A stretch of 63,535 nucleotides of DNA, the filler included. It is 15 parts of 15 records of this genome, joined end to end, with 100 filler letters (N's around TTAATTAATTAA, not from the genome) between each part and the next. Parts side by side here need not be neighbours in the genome. Positions count along the whole stretch, not along the records: positions 22,041 to 27,068 come from SRR7504441_18117; 14 more parts are not named here. One strand, written 5' to 3'. Below are positions 4,047 to 55,959 of this stretch, piece by piece. The position numbers were made by a program, and so were the translations under genes. The notes under the pieces are model-generated. The model saw only the letters and a program-made list of their open reading frames with translations. It had not been told where the DNA came from and searched no databases. Numbering within the stretch: position 1 is the stretch's first letter; every line of letters starts with the position of its first letter.

Positions 4047-4146
4047 NNNNNNNNNNNNNNNNNNNNNNNNNNNNNNNNNNNNNNNNNNNNTTAATTAATT
4101 AANNNNNNNNNNNNNNNNNNNNNNNNNNNNNNNNNNNNNNNNNNNN
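4047..4146. other. Artificial contig spacer (N-run TTAATTAATTAA N-run); recurs near 12.0, 15.8, 22.0, 27.1, 31.1, 34.2, 37.6, 41.3, 44.4, 47.7, 52.8, 55.9 and 59.2 kb
   Basis: Identical palindromic all-frame stop linker flanked by Ns. Confidence 0.98.
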
Positions 4147-11998: not shown

Positions 11999-12324
11999 NN
12001 NNNNNNNNNNNNNNNNNNNNNNNNNNNNNNNNNNNNNNNNNNTTAATTAATTAANNNNNNNNNNNNNNNNNNNNNNNNNNNNNNNNNNNNNNNNNNNNAC
12101 ACATATTAATAAACAATACCTTCCTTTTAATTTATGAAAGGTGATCAATCTTACATTGTTGAATCTTGAGCTCTTGTTCTGCTATTCTTCTTCTCTCTTT
12201 ATTATGTAGAGATACAATTCATGTACAATAGCGCTAGCTACTGTAGATCTAGCGCTACGAGCACCTACAGAGTACGCATATACCGGTGAAATGGCTGAGA
12301 TGGCTGAAAACTGAGAGGTTTGCG

Positions 12325-15642: not shown

Positions 15643-15934
15643 CGAATCATCGGCACACAAGTTCAGGGTGCACATGATTGTATGGATCTTAAAATTACAA
15701 GTAATTAATTATTGTAGTTGATGAAGTACTAGTAGGGGAGACTTGTAAAACTCCCGCACTCCCGNNNNNNNNNNNNNNNNNNNNNNNNNNNNNNNNNNNN
15801 NNNNNNNNTTAATTAATTAANNNNNNNNNNNNNNNNNNNNNNNNNNNNNNNNNNNNNNNNNNNNCAATAAAACACTTTTCGGTTTCACCAGCTCGCAGCT
15901 GCTAGTTTCGCTTTGTGATAATTTAAACCTAAAA

Positions 15935-21940: not shown

Positions 21941-22084
21941 NNNNNNNNNNNNNNNNNNNNNNNNNNNNNNNNNNNNNNNNNNNNTTAATTAATTAANNNN
22001 NNNNNNNNNNNNNNNNNNNNNNNNNNNNNNNNNNNNNNNNGGAGTTAGAGGCTCACCTTAGGCTCAAAATCCGCGGAGGAATTT

Positions 22085-22178
22085 CCTCTTTCTTCCCTCT
22101 CTCTTCTTTTCCCTTTTTTCTTTCTCTTCTTCCCCTTTTTTCTTTCTTTTCTTCCTTTTTTTTTCTTTTTCTTTTTTC
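22085..22178. repeat. Low-complexity T/C tract
   Basis: Almost pure pyrimidine run upstream of the sulfurtransferase. Confidence 0.7.
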
Positions 22179-22235
22179 GGAAGAACCTGCGAAGTCTCGC
22201 CAATAAATTGAGTACAGGTATGGAGGAGCCAGCTG

Positions 22236-23165
22236 ATGAGACGGCCGGTGATCAGCGTGGCTGAGCTGCGCCGGGCGGCGGCCCCGGCCATCTTCGAGGT
22301 CACCTGGCTCCCGGGATCCCGGGCGGCGGCAGCGCACGCAGCGGGTCACATCCCGACCGCCGGGCTGATGGACGTTCAGGAGCACCTCTCTGTGCCCGTG
22401 GACGAGGCCGGGCTGATGTTCACTCGTGAGAGCTGCCGGACCCGGCTGGCCGATCGTATGGGCCGACTGGGCATCGCCAGCGCGCACACGCCGATCGTTT
22501 TGTACTCTCGGAGCGTCGAGGCTGCCATGGCCATGGGCAGGCCGACGCTGCAGGCCCGCGCGGCCACGGGGTTGATGGGCGCCACTCGTGCCTGGTGGAC
22601 GTTAGAATCGTGGGGCTTTACTGCAGTCAAAGTACTCGACGGTGGCTTAGAAGCCTGGCAGGCTGAGGGCGGCCCCATCTGCACAGGAGCCGAACCACAG
22701 CCCCAAGTCGAGTTCATCCTGGACACGCTGACTGATAATGCCCACATGCGAGCCACAGCGCAGGATGTGCTCGCCGCGACTGCGGAGGCCAGCCGCACGC
22801 AGCTGATGGACACTCTCTCTGGATGGCCGAACACGGCGGCTCGGTATGGTAAGCGGTTCGGGCCGGAGCGATCAGGGCACATTGCGAAGGCGTTCAACGT
22901 GGTGTGCTCGCAGTTGGTAGGGGAGGACGGCAAGTTGGTCTCGCCTGGGCGCATGAAAGGGTATTTTGAGCAGCAGGGCACAGACCTGAATCGGCCGATC
23001 ATTGCCTACTGAGGCGGAGGGATTTGTGCCACCATCAACCTATTGTGTTTGGCGGTGCTGCAGGTCCCAAAACAGAGCGTACAGCTGTACGACGACAGCC
23101 TCAGCGGGTGGGTCTCTGATCCCTCGCTTCCTATGGTGCCACTGGCACCAACCGCAAAGATGTAG
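22236..23165 (+). CDS. Selenocysteine-containing two-domain rhodanese / 3-mercaptopyruvate sulfurtransferase-like protein (UGA at 23010-23012 read as Sec)
   Basis: GHIP, RAWWTL..G..VKVLDGGLEAW, RSGHI, then RPIIAY-TGA-GGGICAT. The frame continues to the family C-terminal signature VQLYDDSLSGWVSDPSLP and TAG at 23163-23165. SECIS downstream. Confidence 0.9.
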
Positions 23166-23190
23166 TCTGCGAATCCCTAGTACGGCAAAC

Positions 23191-23282
23191 CGTTGCCTGA
23201 TGCTCTCATGACGACCCGCCTCCTCAACTGTTCCACCACCAACAGCGGAGCCGGGTCTGATAGGGTCTGATCTGTCGCAACG
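23191..23282 (+). promoter_or_regulatory. Eukaryotic type-II SECIS element in 3' UTR
   Basis: ATGA at 23208-23211; helix II GACCCG-C-CTCC pairs with GGAG-C-CGGGTC; unpaired AA at 23226-23227; apical mini-stem CTGTT/AACAG; TGAT at 23258-23261; lower stem CGTTGC/GCAACG. Confidence 0.85.
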
Positions 23283-23466
23283 TACGACCAGTTGACGTAC
23301 CGCAGTATAGTTTCAAGAATTCAAACGAATCATGTGTCGATAAATAATTTAGTTGAGTGTATCCTAATGGTGCGCGAGCTATTAACGAGCTGCTAATCAC
23401 TACATGACTATTCAAGCTGTTAATTAATTGATCAGTGAGCTGCGAGTTAATCAATACCGTGATTGT

Positions 23467-24609
23467 TCAACACACCGGCGAGTCCGATTTCATGTCGCAA
23501 TTGATGCTGTACTGCGCGAGCCAATCGGCCCCGTCGGTGAACTGATCCAAGTACTTGACCAGCCGCTTCTTGTTGGTCCCAGGCGCCACACAGAGCTCCG
23601 CCCCGCAGCCCGCCCCACACCAATTAGCACCGCTATCGAATTCGGTGCTCACTGTGCTGTTGCACTTGCCCTTTGACGGTCCCAGGCAGCCCATGTAGTA
23701 CGGCTTGTGCGGGGTGCCCGGCAGGTTGTAGACGCCGGCTGCGTGGTAGTGATAGGCCACCGTGCCTTGCTTGTCGACCGGGCCGAACTGGCCGTGACAC
23801 TCATCGAGTGGAGTGTTTTCATAGCCAAAGATCCCGAAGCCGTCCGCCGCCACTCCGATCTTGGCCAAGGGGTCCTCCACCTGGTCAAAGCAGTCCGGGG
23901 CCTTGTGATAGTGGTACACAGGCCCAGGCCCGACTGGCGGTGTGACGTGCCCGCCGCAAGGTAGTGGGATCAGCGATGTGTCTACATTATACCCATTCGC
24001 CTCGGCTGGGCCTTTGATTTGGACGCCGTTGTTCATGGCACCGATAACCTGGTAGGCGTTGCCGTTGGTGAGCGCCGAGTTGTTGTACATGTGCAGCGGT
24101 CTGTCCTCCCGGGTCGGGTCCGGGTGAAGACTAAACATAAAGAACTGATAGGTGGGCACCAGCACGTCGCCGGCCGCAGTGGTGTTGGCGGGACAGCCCG
24201 GGGATCCGGGCACGCACGGGCAGACCCGCCCCTCGAACGGAGCACAGTCGGTTGAGTTGCCCTGGGTGGGCGACTTACAGTACCCCTGCCCGATGCCAAA
24301 CGGGCAGTACGCTGGCACGTAATAGTCTGGCACATTGTTCGACTCCATCATGAGCAGCCCGGCCGATCGGTTGGTCCACCATTGGACGCACGAGCGTGTC
24401 TCGGGCCAGCCCTGCCAGCACGAGCTGTTCCACCAGATCGAATCGGGACGGAGCTGAGCCGCCTGAGTGTGCCGGCCTCCTGCCTTGATCATCCGCGTGC
24501 AGCGGCCCCGGATGCAGTGCTCCCCGGTCTGGCATTGGCCGTTCCCCGCACAGCTCGCGGCCGTGCCGCTCAGCCCGCACAGCAGCAGCGCACAGAGGGC
24601 AGCACGCAT
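23467..24609 (-). CDS. Secreted YHYH-domain protein
   Basis: Signal peptide; IGAMNNGV, CGGH...YHYH, IGVAADGFGIFG, LDECHG...YHYH. Confidence 0.8.
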   Translation of the reverse strand: MRAALCALLLCGLSGTAASCAGNGQCQTGEHCIRGRCTRMIKAGGRHTQAAQLRPDSIWWNSSCWQGWPETRSCVQWWTNRSAGLLMMESNNVPDYYVPAYCPFGIGQGYCKSPTQGNSTDCAPFEGRVCPCVPGSPGCPANTTAAGDVLVPTYQFFMFSLHPDPTREDRPLHMYNNSALTNGNAYQVIGAMNNGVQIKGPAEANGYNVDTSLIPLPCGGHVTPPVGPGPVYHYHKAPDCFDQVEDPLAKIGVAADGFGIFGYENTPLDECHGQFGPVDKQGTVAYHYHAAGVYNLPGTPHKPYYMGCLGPSKGKCNSTVSTEFDSGANWCGAGCGAELCVAPGTNKKRLVKYLDQFTDGADWLAQYSINCDMKSDSPVC

Positions 24610-24682
24610 GGTGAGTGAGTGTGTGCAGCAGCCCGATTAGATAGGCGCGGCAGTAGTGTAAGTTAAATCCCAGTTAAACCTG

Positions 24683-25507
24683 ATGGAGGGGGCCCTCGGG
24701 GCAGACTTGGAGCGGGCCCTCGGGGCAGACTTGGAGCGGGTGGCGGCCGCGGTGCGCGAGCCCAGCGAGCTGGTAGTCCGGCAGCTGCGGGCCACCCACA
24801 AGCTGCCCCGGCTGCCCGGCGGGCTCGACGGGCTGACTGCCCGGGCCATTGTGAGGCGGGCCCGGGTGTGCAGCGGGCAAGTGGAGGTCGAGATGACAGG
24901 CCTGGCCCCGGACGGCACCGGCAACCTGGTGGTGGAGAACACTTGCTCCATAGCGAGCCCCAGCCACTCTCGCACCGTGGTCTACCACCGCATCTCGGCG
25001 GAAGGGAAGCTGCTCGGGCAAATCAACAAGCCTGACGAATTTATGGCACTCAGCCAAGCGCTGCCCTGGCAACTCGGGCTGGCCTGCGCCCTCTCGCTGG
25101 TCGCTGGCGGGGCCGATGTAGTCCCGGCGCTGAGCTTGAGTTCGTCGTTAGCTGAGCTCCGTGGGGCCTATCGGGATTATCTGACAGCGGAGGAAGCCGG
25201 GCAACTAGCACAGCTCATCATGAACAAGCACGCCTGCCTCAAGGCGCTCGGGAGCGCCGATTTACCCGCAGAGTATGTGTCTGGCATCCGGCCTCTGCTT
25301 GAGTCTGCCACCGAGTGCTGCAAGCGCGTCGGGCCGCAGTGGAAGCTGATTGAGCACGTCACAGCAGAGCTCTACCCTCACCGGGCTGAGGCGTGCGCCG
25401 AGGAATGGCAGCTTCTGCAGTACCTGGCAGCCGAAAGTGCGAACGAGAGTGTGGAGTGGGTGGTGGCTACCCTGATGGATATCCGCCAACCTGTGCCGAA
25501 TGTGTAA
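24683..25507 (+). CDS. Hypothetical protein (N-terminal 24-nt perfect tandem duplication, ALGADLER x2)
   Basis: Intact 274-aa ORF; GGCCCTCGGGGCAGACTTGGAGCG repeated at 24691-24738. Confidence 0.55.
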   Translation: MEGALGADLERALGADLERVAAAVREPSELVVRQLRATHKLPRLPGGLDGLTARAIVRRARVCSGQVEVEMTGLAPDGTGNLVVENTCSIASPSHSRTVVYHRISAEGKLLGQINKPDEFMALSQALPWQLGLACALSLVAGGADVVPALSLSSSLAELRGAYRDYLTAEEAGQLAQLIMNKHACLKALGSADLPAEYVSGIRPLLESATECCKRVGPQWKLIEHVTAELYPHRAEACAEEWQLLQYLAAESANESVEWVVATLMDIRQPVPNV

Positions 25508-25759
25508 TTGAGCATAAGTGAAAGTTTTCACGATCACCAAAACTTGTTACCCCCGGATTTCTGTTCTAAATGACCCACTCACCCCCCTATTGTTGGCTGA
25601 TTTGTCGCCATGTTCCAAAACTTTGGACCAGTGTTTTTCATTTATGTCGGTTTCAAATATGATTGCAACGAGTTACTAATATAATGAGTTACAGAGTTCA
25701 GTACTGATGCGCATCCTTTCGCCAGTTGTGCGCATCCTTTGGCCGGCCACCCACCCAGG

Positions 25760-26975
25760 CTAGTAAATATACTCGTCGTCCAGAAACTGCTGCGCGAACG
25801 GCGAGCCTTCCGCCACAACATGGAAGATCGGGAACCCTGGCACCGTGAACCCATCCTGGCTCACCAGCTCCCTCAGCGTGCTGTCCAGCTTCACTCGTCT
25901 CCAGCGCTGCTTGGGCTTCTGGCCGTCAGGACCCGGCGCGGCCTCGTACAGTACGACCAGCTGCGGGAGTATGTATTTCCGTTGCTCGTCCCAGCTAGCC
26001 GGAGGGATCGCTGGCGGAAACATCGATTGCAACTGCTCAATCAATGGGCAATCCTCGTGCACGTCCTGCACCAGATCGCTCTGCGCGTGCTCCGGGTACA
26101 GAAACCCGACCTGCCCCCGGGTGAGCCCTGCCCGGACCGGCTCGCACCGCCCAGTGCAGGCAAGATGCCTCGTCTACGTACACTTGCTCGTTCGTGGGCA
26201 GGTCTAGGTGGTATGTGCCGTCCAGCCATTCCGGGCGCGGCCGGAGCTGCACCTTGCGCAGCTCGAGCAGCTGCCGCATCATCCCCTGCACCCGAGCCAC
26301 CTCCTTCTCCTCAGCATCCCGCTCTGCGACCTCCGCCTCCAATTCCGCCCTGCCCGCAGTCGCCTTGGCCGCTATCTCCTGGAGCTCCGCGTTCGCGGGT
26401 TCCACCTTCTGCCCCTCGCTGCAGAACTCGAGGCACTCCGTGAACTTCTTGAGCTTTAGCGCCGCCTGCGCCCCCCGCCAGTAGGGCTTGACTGCAGCCT
26501 TGTTCAGCCGGATAGAGCGCACGCAGTCGTGCATCACGTGCCCCCAGTTCCGGAGCTTGAAGTGCGCCTGGGCCCGGTTGGCCCAGATCACCGCCTCGAG
26601 CGCCGAGTCCCCGCACTTCTGGCACAGCGCGTCGTCGTAGATCGTAATTGCCAGCCGCGGGTTCGGCTTGGTTGCGGCCGCCCCTGCCTGGACCGGCTGG
26701 CCCTTGAGCGCCTTGTTGGCGCGCTCCTTGAGCTCGAGGGCCAGCTCGAGAGGGTCCATCCCGTCGTACTGCAGGCTGGACAACCACTCCACCATCGGGG
26801 CGTTCTCCGGTTTCTGGAGGTCCTTTTCGTCCATGAAGAGCGGGCAATCCCCAAAGCTCTCCGCGTCGATGTTCTCGAGCTGCAGGTCCGAGAACCAGCC
26901 GAAAACTCCGTCCTCGTCCTCCCCGCCCGCCGGCGCGGCCGGCACCACCGCTGCAGGGGCACTGGGCTCGGCCAT
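25760..26975 (-). CDS. TTC4: TTC4/Cns1-like TPR co-chaperone
   Basis: CPLFM, LSSLQYDG..P.E.A..LKERAN, NRAQAHFKLRNWG TPR; C-terminal wheel domain (LHW, FLYPEHAQSDLVQD, ASWD). Confidence 0.85.
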
Positions 26976-27376
26976 TCTCTGTCCCGCGCGCTTAGGCTTC
27001 TGGGATTTCTCGGCAAAGAAAAAGCTGAATTTCTCCTGAGAATTCTCTGGGGCCCGAACGCAAGACTTNNNNNNNNNNNNNNNNNNNNNNNNNNNNNNNN
27101 NNNNNNNNNNNNTTAATTAATTAANNNNNNNNNNNNNNNNNNNNNNNNNNNNNNNNNNNNNNNNNNNNATCGGCTCTTATCAAATTGATCGAGCCTCTTG
27201 TTCATCTTGCGCGTCTTGCACGACGAGCATTTCCGAGTCTTCTCTTCCTCTGGCACTGGCGGGTCCATGGTGGTGCAGTTGCGGCGAGGGGCCTTCCTCG
27301 GCCCTGCCGCCTACCTGCCGCCGTGCTCTGTTGTCCACTCACCTTGCTCACAGAATTTGCCGATCTGTTGAACAAG

Positions 27377-44395: not shown

Positions 44396-44495
44396 NNNNN
44401 NNNNNNNNNNNNNNNNNNNNNNNNNNNNNNNNNNNNNNNTTAATTAATTAANNNNNNNNNNNNNNNNNNNNNNNNNNNNNNNNNNNNNNNNNNNN

Positions 44496-47611: not shown

Positions 47612-47711
47612 NNNNNNNNNNNNNNNNNNNNNNNNNNNNNNNNNNNNNNNNNNNNTTAATTAATTAANNNNNNNNNNNNNNNNNNNNNNNNNNNNNNNNN
47701 NNNNNNNNNNN

Positions 47712-52832: not shown

Positions 52833-55800
52833 GTAGTGCGGTCCAGTGCTCCAATCGGTGGCACGGCGTGCTTGCTGAGGCAACAACCTCACAGCAGCCG
52901 GCAGCCTCGATCTCAGGACAACGCGATAAATCCAGCCAACCTGCTGTTGAAGGCCACTACGGGAATTGTCTGGCTCGACAAGAACACCTCAAGCGCAAGG
53001 CGGGTACCATGGGCCAGGATCAGGTGCAATCGAACCCGAACATGCAGGATGAAGCAACGGCTGAAAGCACAACACTTCAAGGCAGCGCTGGTGGGGCGAT
53101 CCCATTGATGGCCGAGGTGGTGGTGCCAATCCAACCAGGTCATCAGTGGCGAGCTGAAGACCGAGTTCAACTTATCGGTCTGAAGAGGGGGACCATGAAT
53201 GGCTCGAATGGCACTATTCGGCTGTATGAGCAGAATAGCGGTCGGTGGCAAGTCGAACTGGACCAAGTCTTCGCGAGTCAGTGCATCTACGCGGTCAAGC
53301 CACAAAATCTTGTGCCGCTTGTGACTGCTGCCGCAAGCGATGACGAACCACCGCCTTGTGAACCGATAACTATCTCAGAGGATCCTGTAAGCAGCTCAGA
53401 GGACGATGATCAGGATCCCGAGGATACTGACGAGGACAGCGCGGAGTACCCAGTGGAGGGCGTGGAGGTTCAGCTGGCCTGGAATCCAGCTACAGGTGGA
53501 AGGGGCCCCTGGTTGGCACGGCAGAAGCGGCGCTGGCGACAGAAGGTAGCCCAGTCCACGCCAGCAGTGGCGACATGCGCTGTGGCTGCAACAAGTGCGC
53601 CTAAGCCGAGTAAGCCTACCAAGGCTGCCAGTGACTTTTGGCTCTGGCTCTGGCCAAGCCTGGAGCGTCTTGGCTGGCGGATCCAGTACGGCCACAGGCC
53701 AGGCGATAGGTGCGTGCTAGCTAGTCGTCGAATGTGACGGGCTGTAGGTACTACTGCCCGCCAGGAGTGAATCGCATGGATCGCGGAATGAAGTCACGTA
53801 GGGACTATTTCGACTCTTACATGCAGGTAGAATCAACTCCATGATATTGTATTAAGCTCCCTTCAGGTTGCAGACCACTGCCGCTCGAGCCCAGATTCTC
53901 AGCTTCAAGCGCTCATCCGACGAGCAGAAACTGCATCTGCTGGGCATTTCCCAAGCAAGCAGCGAGAAGTCCCTTACGAAGAGGACGCTGATGTCAAGAT
54001 AGCAGTAGGCGCTAAAGAAAAGGGCTGGAAGGTCACTGTCATTGGCTATCGCTGTGGGCATCCCCAGGTCAGTGATGCTGGCAATCCATTGGGCTCATGA
54101 CGGTGTTTGTTGCTGGCAGCGGGAAATACGAGACCCTGAGGGCAATTTATTTCATTCTCTTCAGGAAGCCCAGTATACATTCCTCGGTAAGCCAATAGGC
54201 GTGACCCCCAAGATGGGCGGAGGCAAATACTGGGCACAAACCGGGGACCGGCACTGCAAGGGAGTTAGCCGCTACGACCCATCAGCGTTTGACTCCAGAA
54301 AGCCAGCAGTGAAATCAGCAGGCCGGCCAGCCGCCCTACCTGATCCTAGGGCACCTATTCACGAAGCCCCAGAAGATACCTCGGTGTGTGCCTTCTGCGG
54401 TGAGCCGGAGGATACCACCTGCAAGCTCTTTGCTCGACCAGCGTTTCGAGAGAATGGAAGGGATGGAAACTTATGGGTGCACGACGATTGCATGATACAC
54501 AGTCCTGAGGTCTATGAGGGCGAATTGGTTGACGATTTGTACGTGGAGGCATACAATGTGATCCGATCTGTGAAGCGAAGCCGGATGTTGGCATGCGCCG
54601 TGTGTGGTCAGAAGGGCGCCTCTATAGGGTGCTTTGTTGGCAGTTGTAAGATTTCGGTTCACTATCATTGCGCACTGAAGACCACGTGGGACTTTGGCGA
54701 TTCCCGAGAGTTCTACTGCGAAAAGCATCGTGGCAACAGGGCTGTGGAATGGCTGCAGTGTGACACCTGTCAGAAATGGCGAATTTTGCCACGCAGTGTC
54801 AAAGCAGCAAGTGTCGGAGATACCTGGCAGTGTTCTGATGCATACTGGGATAAGACTCTGACGTGCGAAACTCCAGAAACTCTTGACGCATTTGCATCAC
54901 TAGGAGCACAACCTCCTGCACAAGATGTGCACACAGCCGAACAGTCAGGGTTTCTGTCTCGTGGACATGGCAAGCAGCCCAAAAAGAGAGCAGTGGATGC
55001 TGACGACGACAGCAAGATGTGGGTACAGTGTGATATCTGTCACAAGTGGCGTCAGGTGCGGGGCCCGATCCCTGATAGATGGACCTGCGCGGAAAATGAC
55101 GATGCAGCATTCCAGAGCTGTGCTATCCCACAGATCATGTCAGATGAAGAAATCGACAGACAACTCGGCCTCCAGACCAAGAAGCGGAAGGTCAAGCACA
55201 AGCAGCCAGTGTCAACAATGCCATCTCAGCAATCTTTTGCAGAATCATTTGCGTGCCACCGGCCAGTATTCCTGGACTCGGAAGTACACGAGGCCACAGA
55301 TTCAATGAAGTGCGTCGTCTGCCAGTATGTGCTTACCAGCACCGATAGGCTCATTGAGTATCCATGCAAGTGCCATGTTGCTTTGCATGAAGCTTGCTTC
55401 AATGCTCTGCTTGACAGCGACTCGAAATGGAAGAAAAAGTGCCCGTCTTGTCAGCAAACTGTGCGCCTCCCACTCGAGCTGCGCATTCAAAACAATTATC
55501 ATCCATCCGGTGCACAGTCGCCCCTCGCATCGGTCGCAGCCTCTGCAGCGCTCTCCGCTGACCCAGAAGGAACAACTAACACCAAGCGGAAGCGGATCAG
55601 CAACTCGCCCGAGCTAGCCGACCCTGTGTTGGTGCCTTATGAGGGCGAGATCGACTTGTCGCTGTGGCGCTCATCCACCTTACCGAGCGGCTACAGAGGA
55701 GTTTATCGTGACAAAAGTGTTAAAAAACGGCCTTGGAAGGCCCAGATCGCAACACCCAAGGTAAGAAAAGGCTATGTCTGGCTAGGCATGCACGCCACCA

Positions 55801-55838
55801 AAGAGCAAGCAGCAGAAGCTGTGGCGCGGAAGTGGATG
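52833..55838 (+). CDS. Chromatin reader: extended PHD (HC5HC2H), two CW zinc fingers, RING and AP2-like domain (both ends truncated)
   Basis: WVHDDCMIHSPEV..CAVCGQKGASIGC..HYHCA..FYCEKH; WLQCDTCQKWR and WVQCDICHKWR; CVVC..CKCH..HEAC..CPSCQ; SGYRGVY..WKAQI..WLGMHATKEQAAEA. Confidence 0.85.
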
Positions 55839-55959
55839 NNNNNNNNNNNNNNNNNNNNNNNNNNNNNNNNNNNNNNNNNNNNTTAATTAATTAANNNNNN
55901 NNNNNNNNNNNNNNNNNNNNNNNNNNNNNNNNNNNNNNCGGTGAAGACGTACGAGTACG

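Follow-up and report, generated by a model that had tools for sequence, protein, structure and literature searches.

A rhodanese-fold gene of a marine microbial eukaryote with a probable selenocysteine codon at its catalytic position

Introduction

When a rhodanese reading frame ends at a TGA exactly where the catalytic cysteine is expected, is that codon a stop or is it read as selenocysteine (Sec, U)? The question is raised by a gene at positions 22236-23165 of a 63,535-nucleotide stretch of assembled DNA (the window, in whose coordinates all positions are given). A first-pass annotation, made by a model from the letters of the sequence, had described the gene as a selenocysteine sulfurtransferase with a UGA at the rhodanese catalytic Cys and a selenocysteine insertion sequence (SECIS) hairpin beyond the true stop. 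The follow-up analysis reported here supports, on comparative sequence evidence, a predicted eukaryotic Sec rhodanese with Sec at the persulfide position and a SECIS in the 3' untranslated region (UTR).

Sec rhodaneses are already catalogued as a family, from marine metagenomes (2005, 2008) and from algae (2020). According to the portions of these sources that were available, three Sargasso Sea sequences with a predicted bacterial SECIS led to the proposal of a selenoprotein family of rhodanese-related sulfurtransferases (COG2897; PMC1088965), the GOS metagenome contributed eight sequences of cd01449 and one of COG2897 (PMC2398784), a 2026 review of prokaryotic selenoproteins names rhodanese-like forms 2 and 4 (UxxG) (PMC13188914), and 'rhodanese' is one of the 42 algal selenoprotein families of 'The algal selenoproteomes' (2020; PMC7539508). 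The first, second and last of these, as excerpted, bear out the remark in the first-pass annotation that such proteins have been found in bacteria and a few algae or protists. For Lobanov 2007 and an Archaeplastida survey, the word 'rhodanese' was not found in what the search listing gives of them.

Results

A rhodanese reading frame continues through an in-frame TGA

The features on which the argument turns are the following.

22236 to 23165, plus strand: coding sequence of a two-domain rhodanese, single exon, 309 residues, U259, TAG stop (translation, Pfam, PDB matches, AlphaFold2)
23010 to 23012, plus strand: in-frame TGA, predicted to be read as selenocysteine, U259 (alignment, AlphaFold2, conservation)
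23025 to 23027, plus strand: TGT codon of Cys264, at the start of helix 263-274, candidate selenenylsulfide partner (comparison, AlphaFold2)
23019 to 23068, plus strand: hairpin beginning 6 nt after the UGA, outer stem 23019-23028 with 23059-23068 (folds)
23199 to 23272, plus strand: SECIS-like element of type II layout in the 3' UTR (constrained fold, pattern filter)

Under translation table 11 the open reading frame (ORF) spans 22236-23012 and yields 258 residues with the C-terminus ...NRPIIAY, ending at the TGA. Decoding it as U yields Y-U-G-G-G-I-C-A and extends the frame by 50 codons, by way of LYDDSLSGWVSDPSLPM, up to a TAG at 23163-23165, the post-Sec tail beginning UGGGICATINLL and extending to LYDDSLSGWVSDPSLPMVPLAPTAKM. 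Both the end at RPIIAY and the 50-codon continuation had been pointed out in the first-pass annotation and were confirmed by translation. At the other end, the N-terminus MRRPVISVAEL agrees with the MARSPIVTAAEL and MASVSTPLISVAEF of relatives.

The product was recognised as a rhodanese by profile, by sequence and by predicted structure. The Pfam rhodanese domain (PF00581) matched in two stretches with 55.2 bits, above its curated cut-off of 22.2; an inactive N-terminal domain occupies residues ~5-150 and the catalytic domain residues ~170-300. A phmmer search of PDB sequences matched 17 sulfurtransferases, led by E. coli SseA (E 7.9e-23). In these alignments U259 falls on the catalytic Cys of SseA (iiayUgggica against iivsCgsgvta) and of human thiosulfate sulfurtransferase (TST), the latter alignment covering residues 19-293, so that the placement of the TGA at the persulfide-forming position, as first proposed, held. 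U259 opens the six-residue active-site loop, the place of the nucleophile in rhodaneses. The AlphaFold2 model, built from 57 aligned relatives, reached a pLDDT of 93.4 and a pTM of 0.92 and places U259 directly after strand 255-258 and before helix 263-274, which is the rhodanese active-site geometry; an insertion at residues 92-111 was modelled with low confidence. Foldseek aligned ~300 columns at TM-scores of 0.75-0.85 to human and mouse 3-mercaptopyruvate sulfurtransferase (MST) and to bovine and human TST.

Assignment to one of the two classical enzymes was not obtained. The NCBIfam MST equivalog NF008557 scored 113 bits against a cut-off of 250, and the protein is therefore taken as a sulfurtransferase-fold enzyme of a distinct subfamily rather than a strict MST or TST. 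Its loop, UGGGICA, differs from the CG[ST]GVTA of MST, and in the tree the protein is not placed among the CGSGVTA sequences; the loop also has no basic residue, unlike the TST loop CRKGVTA (a motif taken from the phmmer alignment). Together with the Sec reading developed below, the gene in all likelihood encodes a cytosolic-looking two-domain MST/TST-fold rhodanese of a marine microbial eukaryote.

The TGA is conserved and the frame behind it is under selection

The same codon is TGA in two metagenome relatives, L001 (position 1112; 43% GC) and L002 (position 1106; 33% GC). In both, the frame continues as GGGICATINLF...LYDDSL(T/S)GWV to a TAA stop 52-53 codons on. Differences by first, second and third codon position after the TGA number 19/18/34 between the window gene and L001 and 7/8/23 between L001 and L002. 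As these fall mostly at third positions, the tail behind the TGA is translated. Two closer relatives, L003 and L004, stop short of the Sec codon.

Protein databases tell of the same codon by what they omit. The closest four of 783 matched proteins end in ..(I/V/M)AY, one residue before U, and bacterial proteins among these matches read AYCGGGIAAT. A HMMER pass over 1.84 billion representatives of 50%-identity clusters gave 4883 matches, and the best 13 were fetched: ten end one residue before Sec (P0242, P0002, P0243, P0245, P0246, P0004, P0249, P0251, P0261 and P0266), two are broken or partial, and one, to which EukProt gives the label Telonema subtile, has YCGGGISAT. Because their sequences end at the UGA, the ten cluster representatives stand in the database without an active site.

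Alignment with Cys homologues, which had been suggested as a check on the first-pass annotation, gave a uniform answer among prokaryotes. Of 80 homologous loci fetched, four had no recognisable loop; in the 76 readable ones the catalytic codon is TGC or TGT throughout (76/76), and TGA was found in 0/80. The pattern AYUGGGI[AC]AT likewise had no match in 185,579 prokaryote genomes. What marks a selenoprotein gene, a conserved in-frame UGA aligned to the Cys of homologues with a selected frame behind it, was thus found.

TGA closes a PTPLA ORF of the window 13 residues past the end of its Pfam domain, and it also closes the YHYH ORF on the same contig; because it ends other ORFs at expected domain ends, the code is not reassigned. 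A 251-nt contig of the seawater run X2 matches 22983-23233 with zero differences, and the TGA is therefore not a private error of this assembly. Near-identical pieces of the locus do occur in marine samples. Each of the sequencing runs that share words with the window does so at a share of at most 0.17, and the four examined gave short contigs, none of which spans the gene.

A SECIS-like element follows the stop codon in three genes

The AUGA..AA..UGA fold that the first-pass annotation had placed ~43 nt after the stop was located with AUGA at 23208-23211 (starting 43 nt after the last stop base), AA at 23226-27 and UGAU at 23258-23261. Helix 1 pairs 23199-23206 with 23262-23272. Helix 2 consists of 6 + 4 bp (23213-18 with 23252-57 and 23220-23 with 23247-50) around a C·C mismatch; above it lie an internal loop UCAA, a mini-stem of 5 bp (23228-32 with 23241-45) and an apical loop of 8 nt (23233-40).

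A home-made filter was used for comparison. It asks for AUGA, 10-14 nt, AA or CC and then GA, with at least 8 bp in helix 2 and at least 3 bp in helix 1; as AUGA alone is accepted at the first position, elements of the GUGA type would be missed. Exactly one match was obtained in each 3' region, 43 nt (window gene), 30 nt (L001) and 34 nt (L002) after the stop, and in L001 and L002 it is the sole match on both strands of the whole sequence. Dinucleotide shuffles of the 3' regions passed the filter in 9/300 cases for the window gene, 2/300 for L001 and 23/300 for L002. Across the window the filter matches about once per 12.7 kb (10 matches in 2 x 63.5 kb of strand), a rarity that speaks against chance behind this stop. 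Nine other matches in the window (33645, 38477 on the minus strand, 41929, 60015 on the minus strand and five more) were set aside, none lying behind a credible U-containing ORF, and are probably chance occurrences in GC-rich DNA. The bacterial SECIS families of Rfam gave no match in the window, L001 or L002.

The identification as a SECIS thus stood in part: the layout recurs in three genes by the home-made filter, and the curated model Rfam SECIS_1 falls short of its threshold (16.0 against 35 bits). That the AUGA..AA..UGAU stem-loop, found in three divergent genes at 30-43 nt from the stop, would act as a SECIS is well supported by the comparison, although it is not certified, because the filter is loose and home-made.

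A hairpin lies directly behind the UGA

Six nucleotides after the UGA the coding sequence can form the hairpin listed above, and equivalent hairpins begin at the same distance from the Sec UGA in L001 (1121-1170) and L002 (1115-1164). The register of the outer stem is identical in 3/3 genes, with 10 pairs each and 30/30 cells paired. Against dinucleotide shuffles the hairpin has a z of -0.77 in the window gene, -4.0 in L001 and -5.4 in L002; against a synonymous-codon null the values are -0.8, -2.7 and -2.6. By stability it ranks 3/292 among the coding-sequence windows of L001, 1/259 in L002 and 123/286 in the window gene. None of the 76 bacterial Cys genes has a fold with z below -3 at this site, and the 3' arm of the hairpin consists of the Q(V/I)P codons, which belong to an insertion missing from the bacterial Cys forms. 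Since L001 and L002 are close kin, the hairpin counts as two observations, not three.

The hairpin is regarded as a candidate element of the Sec-redefinition type. The SELENON element has a 6-nt spacing after the UGA, and to our knowledge Sec-redefinition elements have been described for animal mRNAs only. The inner stem was dropped as evidence, its register differing between the window gene and L001/L002. Rfam matches to microRNA families (23019-23070, and weakly 1107-1173 of L002) were also discarded, as they merely reflect the post-UGA hairpin.

A second cysteine accompanies Sec

The extra Cys that the first-pass annotation had noticed five residues after Sec is Cys264, encoded by TGT at 23025-27. 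Cys occupies this position (+5) in 3/3 of the Sec forms whose sequence is available beyond the TGA (window gene, L001 and L002). Among the 76 bacterial Cys forms the residue is T in 50, A in 18, S in eight and C in none, and the Telonema Cys form has S. The +5 side chain presumably adjoins the catalytic sulfur in solved rhodaneses. This distribution gives indirect support to Cys264 as a fitting partner for Sec259.

The Sec forms constitute a clade of eukaryotic origin

A tree of 97 rows was inferred with FastTree only, with midpoint rooting for drawing only. One clade united the 12 Sec or truncated rows with the Telonema Cys form (SH-like support 99). This clade adjoins a bacterial YCGGGI[AS]A group (support 99) and stands apart from the CGSGVTA group of MST. 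The loops of the bacteria divide into CGSG(V/I/L)(T/S)A (55/76) and C(G/A)(G/A)GI(A/S/T)A (21/76).

The Cys member (P0244/P0404, EukProt label Telonema subtile, YCGGGISAT) is nested within the Sec clade beside P0246. Its position suggests a Sec-to-Cys replacement in which the +5 Cys would have been replaced too.

The clade is considered eukaryotic because L003 carries an intron, because a calpain (PF00648, 1e-61) lies next to the gene in L001, and because of the EukProt labels of cluster members (Picozoa, and Telonema for the Cys form). The L003 intron reads GTGAG...CAG, is 96 nt long and is of the GT..AG type. In L003 and L004, the closest relatives readable at DNA level (68% GC), the 96-nt intron follows ...GHIAGA; the window gene is intronless.

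Contig and neighbouring sequences

The window is a paste of 15 short contigs (~3-8 kb) joined by 14 linkers of 100 nt (N runs around TTAATTAATTAA), at 4047-4146, 11999-12098, 15765-15864, 21941-22040, 27069-27168 and nine other places. Gene order across linkers is meaningless, and the window gives no basis for linking the gene to anything outside 22041-27068.

22041 to 27068, no strand: assembly contig with the Sec-rhodanese gene (linker positions, sequence)
21941 to 22040, no strand: assembly linker immediately 5' of the gene (sequence, linker list)
23467 to 24609, minus strand: convergent neighbour, a 380-residue Cys-rich YHYH-domain protein (PF14240, 1.1e-06)

The contig begins just 195 nt before the ATG, and the promoter region is therefore incomplete. 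A tract of C and T only, ~110 nt long, lies at 22080-22190 between linker and ATG. A putative 14-codon upstream ORF at 22220-22264 on the plus strand, its ATG out of frame, overlaps the main start at 22236 and ends in TGA. The YHYH protein has a hydrophobic N-terminus, and its stop lies ~195 nt from the end of the SECIS-like element. An unnamed ORF and a TPR ORF (Pfam) complete the contig, and Pfam found no selenium-pathway gene beside the Sec rhodanese on these 5 kb.

Elsewhere in the window, Pfam identified the eukaryotic families kinesin, bromodomain, PTPLA, zf-CW/PHD/AP2 and alpha-galactosidase. The ORF at 54042-55886 (plus strand) combines PHD-like, zf-CW and RING domains with a weak AP2 match and is cut off by a linker. 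The linker sequence TTAATTAATTAA carries stops in all frames, and a linker TAA ends several long ORFs (S15 peptidase at 44444, alpha-galactosidase at 47659, zf-CW at 55886). Such TAA ends were dropped as stop-codon evidence, being located within the assembly linkers. For the S15 peptidase ORF the best database match had only 63% identity, and none of the matches came from a named close relative.

Discussion

Because the TGA is conserved, the frame behind it is under purifying selection, bacteria have Cys at the same position and a SECIS-like element follows in three divergent genes, the UGA is interpreted here as Sec, and it is highly probable that this is a genuine selenocysteine-encoding rhodanese-fold gene.

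A number of observations weigh against this reading. The seawater run X2, which shows the same TGA, may be the assembly's own source. Contigs from RNA libraries cover 22245-22924 only, short of the TGA and of the SECIS-like element, and presence in an RNA library is no proof of transcription. ARAGORN predicted 0 tRNAs, and hence no tRNA-Sec, in the window, and no Sec-pathway family occurs among the Pfam matches of its 58 ORFs or frames, a result that concerns the window only. The filter used for the SECIS, besides being home-made, is loose enough to match 10 times in the window. Rfam SECIS_1 gave 16.0 bits on 23199-23281 (E 4.6 for 601 nt; gathering threshold 35), no Rfam SECIS match was found in L001 or L002, and when folded without constraint the 3' region shows no exceptional stability (z -1.31). 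The Rfam SECIS model is weak outside animals. The window gene's own hairpin is not exceptional (z -0.77, rank 123/286), and four outer-stem pairs vary on one side and none on both. Finally, we infer the selenenylsulfide as such, and likewise the substrate and the Se-S intermediate, for a protein that scores 113 bits where the MST cut-off is 250.

The most serious alternative accepts the recoding and moves the function: the chief role could be that of a Sec/Cys264 redox couple, or of a selenium carrier whose perselenide would feed selenophosphate synthesis. A loop that matches neither the MST nor the TST motif, the low equivalog score and a U-x4-C pairing specific to the Sec forms would all suit such a role. 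The protein nevertheless has the complete fold, the pair of domains and the catalytic position of a sulfurtransferase, the nearest Cys relatives are annotated at source as sulfurtransferases, and the 5-kb contig is devoid of selenium-pathway genes, so that this alternative is viewed as unlikely, if worth keeping in mind. Far less probable is a TGA that truly stops translation, leaving a pseudogene or a 258-residue protein without catalytic loop. Gene callers do end the protein at the TGA in every relative, and the curated SECIS model stays below its threshold; against this, the same stop codon recurs clade-wide with 50-53 open codons behind it that change mostly at third positions, and the product would lose its entire active-site loop and helix.

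Read-through in which a near-cognate or suppressor tRNA, or an altered code, puts Cys, Trp or Arg at the UGA is only marginally more credible than a true stop. No Sec machinery was seen in the window, and a hairpin behind a stop codon is a classic stimulator of read-through, as described in the accessible part of PMC8704476. Yet TGA ends other ORFs of the window at expected domain ends, UGA appears only where homologues have the catalytic Cys, and the SECIS-like element is present in three genes. Equally improbable as a true stop is a bacterial contig mis-binned into a eukaryotic assembly, in which case the post-UGA hairpin would serve as a bacterial SECIS and the 3' element would match by chance. 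As first described (PMC1088965, in the portion available), the family is prokaryotic and has predicted bacterial SECIS hairpins after the UGA; the nearest Cys relatives are bacterial, and short contigs were pasted together to make the window. This is countered by the lack of TGA in the 80 prokaryotic loci and of the Sec pattern in the 185,579 prokaryote genomes, by the spliceosomal-type intron, the calpain neighbour and the EukProt labels of the clade, and by a hairpin that is weak in the window gene itself and leaves the bacterial SECIS families of Rfam unmatched.

Under the preferred reading, a Sec-encoding rhodanese of a eukaryote, the following scheme may be drawn; we infer its recoding step from the comparative SECIS signal and its chemistry from the fold and the Sec-linked Cys. 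A ribosome reaching the UGA at 23010-12 would insert Sec instead of terminating, directed by the element at 23199-23272 through SBP2, eEFSec and Sec-tRNA, and the hairpin that begins 6 nt downstream may favour recoding by delaying termination, in the manner of animal Sec-redefinition elements. The selenolate would then accept sulfane sulfur from a donor such as 3-mercaptopyruvate, thiosulfate or a persulfide, forming a Se-S-H intermediate from which an acceptor would receive the sulfur. In the unloaded or oxidised state, Sec259 could close a selenenylsulfide with Cys264, and a thiol reductant, for example thioredoxin, could reopen this bond; selenium would thereby be spared over-oxidation.

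Among known systems, the marine metagenome selenoproteins of COG2897 and cd01449 are alike in being two-domain SseA-type rhodaneses of marine origin with a catalytic UGA and a U-x-x-G motif. As far as the available descriptions of them go, these entries are prokaryotic and have as SECIS a hairpin right after the UGA, whereas the present gene belongs to a eukaryotic clade and carries an AUGA..AA..UGAU element in its 3' UTR; the comparison is one of descriptions only. The algal 'rhodanese' selenoprotein (PMC7539508) is likewise eukaryotic and SECIS-dependent and is taken by its authors, in the part available, as a sulfur transferase. Going by description alone, that family is likely the same as the present clade. 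SelTryp of kinetoplastids is also a eukaryotic selenoprotein with rhodanese domains but, in the excerpt of its report (PMC1557815), differs by having Sec in a C-terminal CxxU tail, rhodanese loops that keep Cys and a far larger architecture. The Sec-redefinition elements (SREs) of animal SELENON and SELENOT mRNAs, as presented in the accessible part of PMC8704476, share with the present gene a coding stem-loop shortly after the UGA in addition to a 3'-UTR SECIS. The comparison is one of position, and the hairpin of the window gene is no more stable than chance.

Among Cys enzymes, MST (SseA, 1urh; human MPST, 4jgt and 3olh) and TST (bovine, 1rhd; human, 8agf) share the fold at TM-scores of 0.75-0.85 and the strand-loop-helix active site, whose loop begins with the nucleophile. 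The present protein differs from them by Sec in place of Cys, by UGGGICA in place of their CGSGVTA or CRKGVTA, by an identity of 23-28% and by the insertion at 92-111. Its nearest Cys relatives, at 33-38% identity, are the bacterial YCGGGI[AS]A sulfurtransferases (L005-L055, P0006 and P0008) of Reyranellaceae, Xanthobacteraceae, Pelagibacterales and Chloroflexota metagenome-assembled genomes. These form the sister group in the tree and share the loop except for U/C and the +5 residue: they have Cys as the catalytic residue and either A or S at +5, no Q(V/I)P insertion and no strong fold after the Cys codon.

A more far-reaching proposal, which we regard as speculative and rather improbable, is that the clade uses two cooperating recoding signals, the SECIS and the hairpin (the latter as an SRE or as a relic of a bacterial SECIS), together with a dedicated resolving Cys. 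If so, the relic variant would mean that a bacterial SECIS was retained when a bacterial Sec-rhodanese gene entered eukaryotes, some 'prokaryotic' COG2897 selenoproteins of ocean metagenomes, called by such a hairpin, may be protist genes, and the invariant U-x4-C would be the signature of a selenenylsulfide switch whose origin coincided with that of Sec.

The gene leaves knowledge of selenium biology in general unchanged. It is a clean example of a selenoprotein shortened by gene callers, and it offers two leads, the Sec-specific Cys at +5 and the hairpin just behind the UGA. For the family, it indicates that Sec rhodaneses span a well-supported clade of marine protists in which one member, that of Telonema, has Cys.

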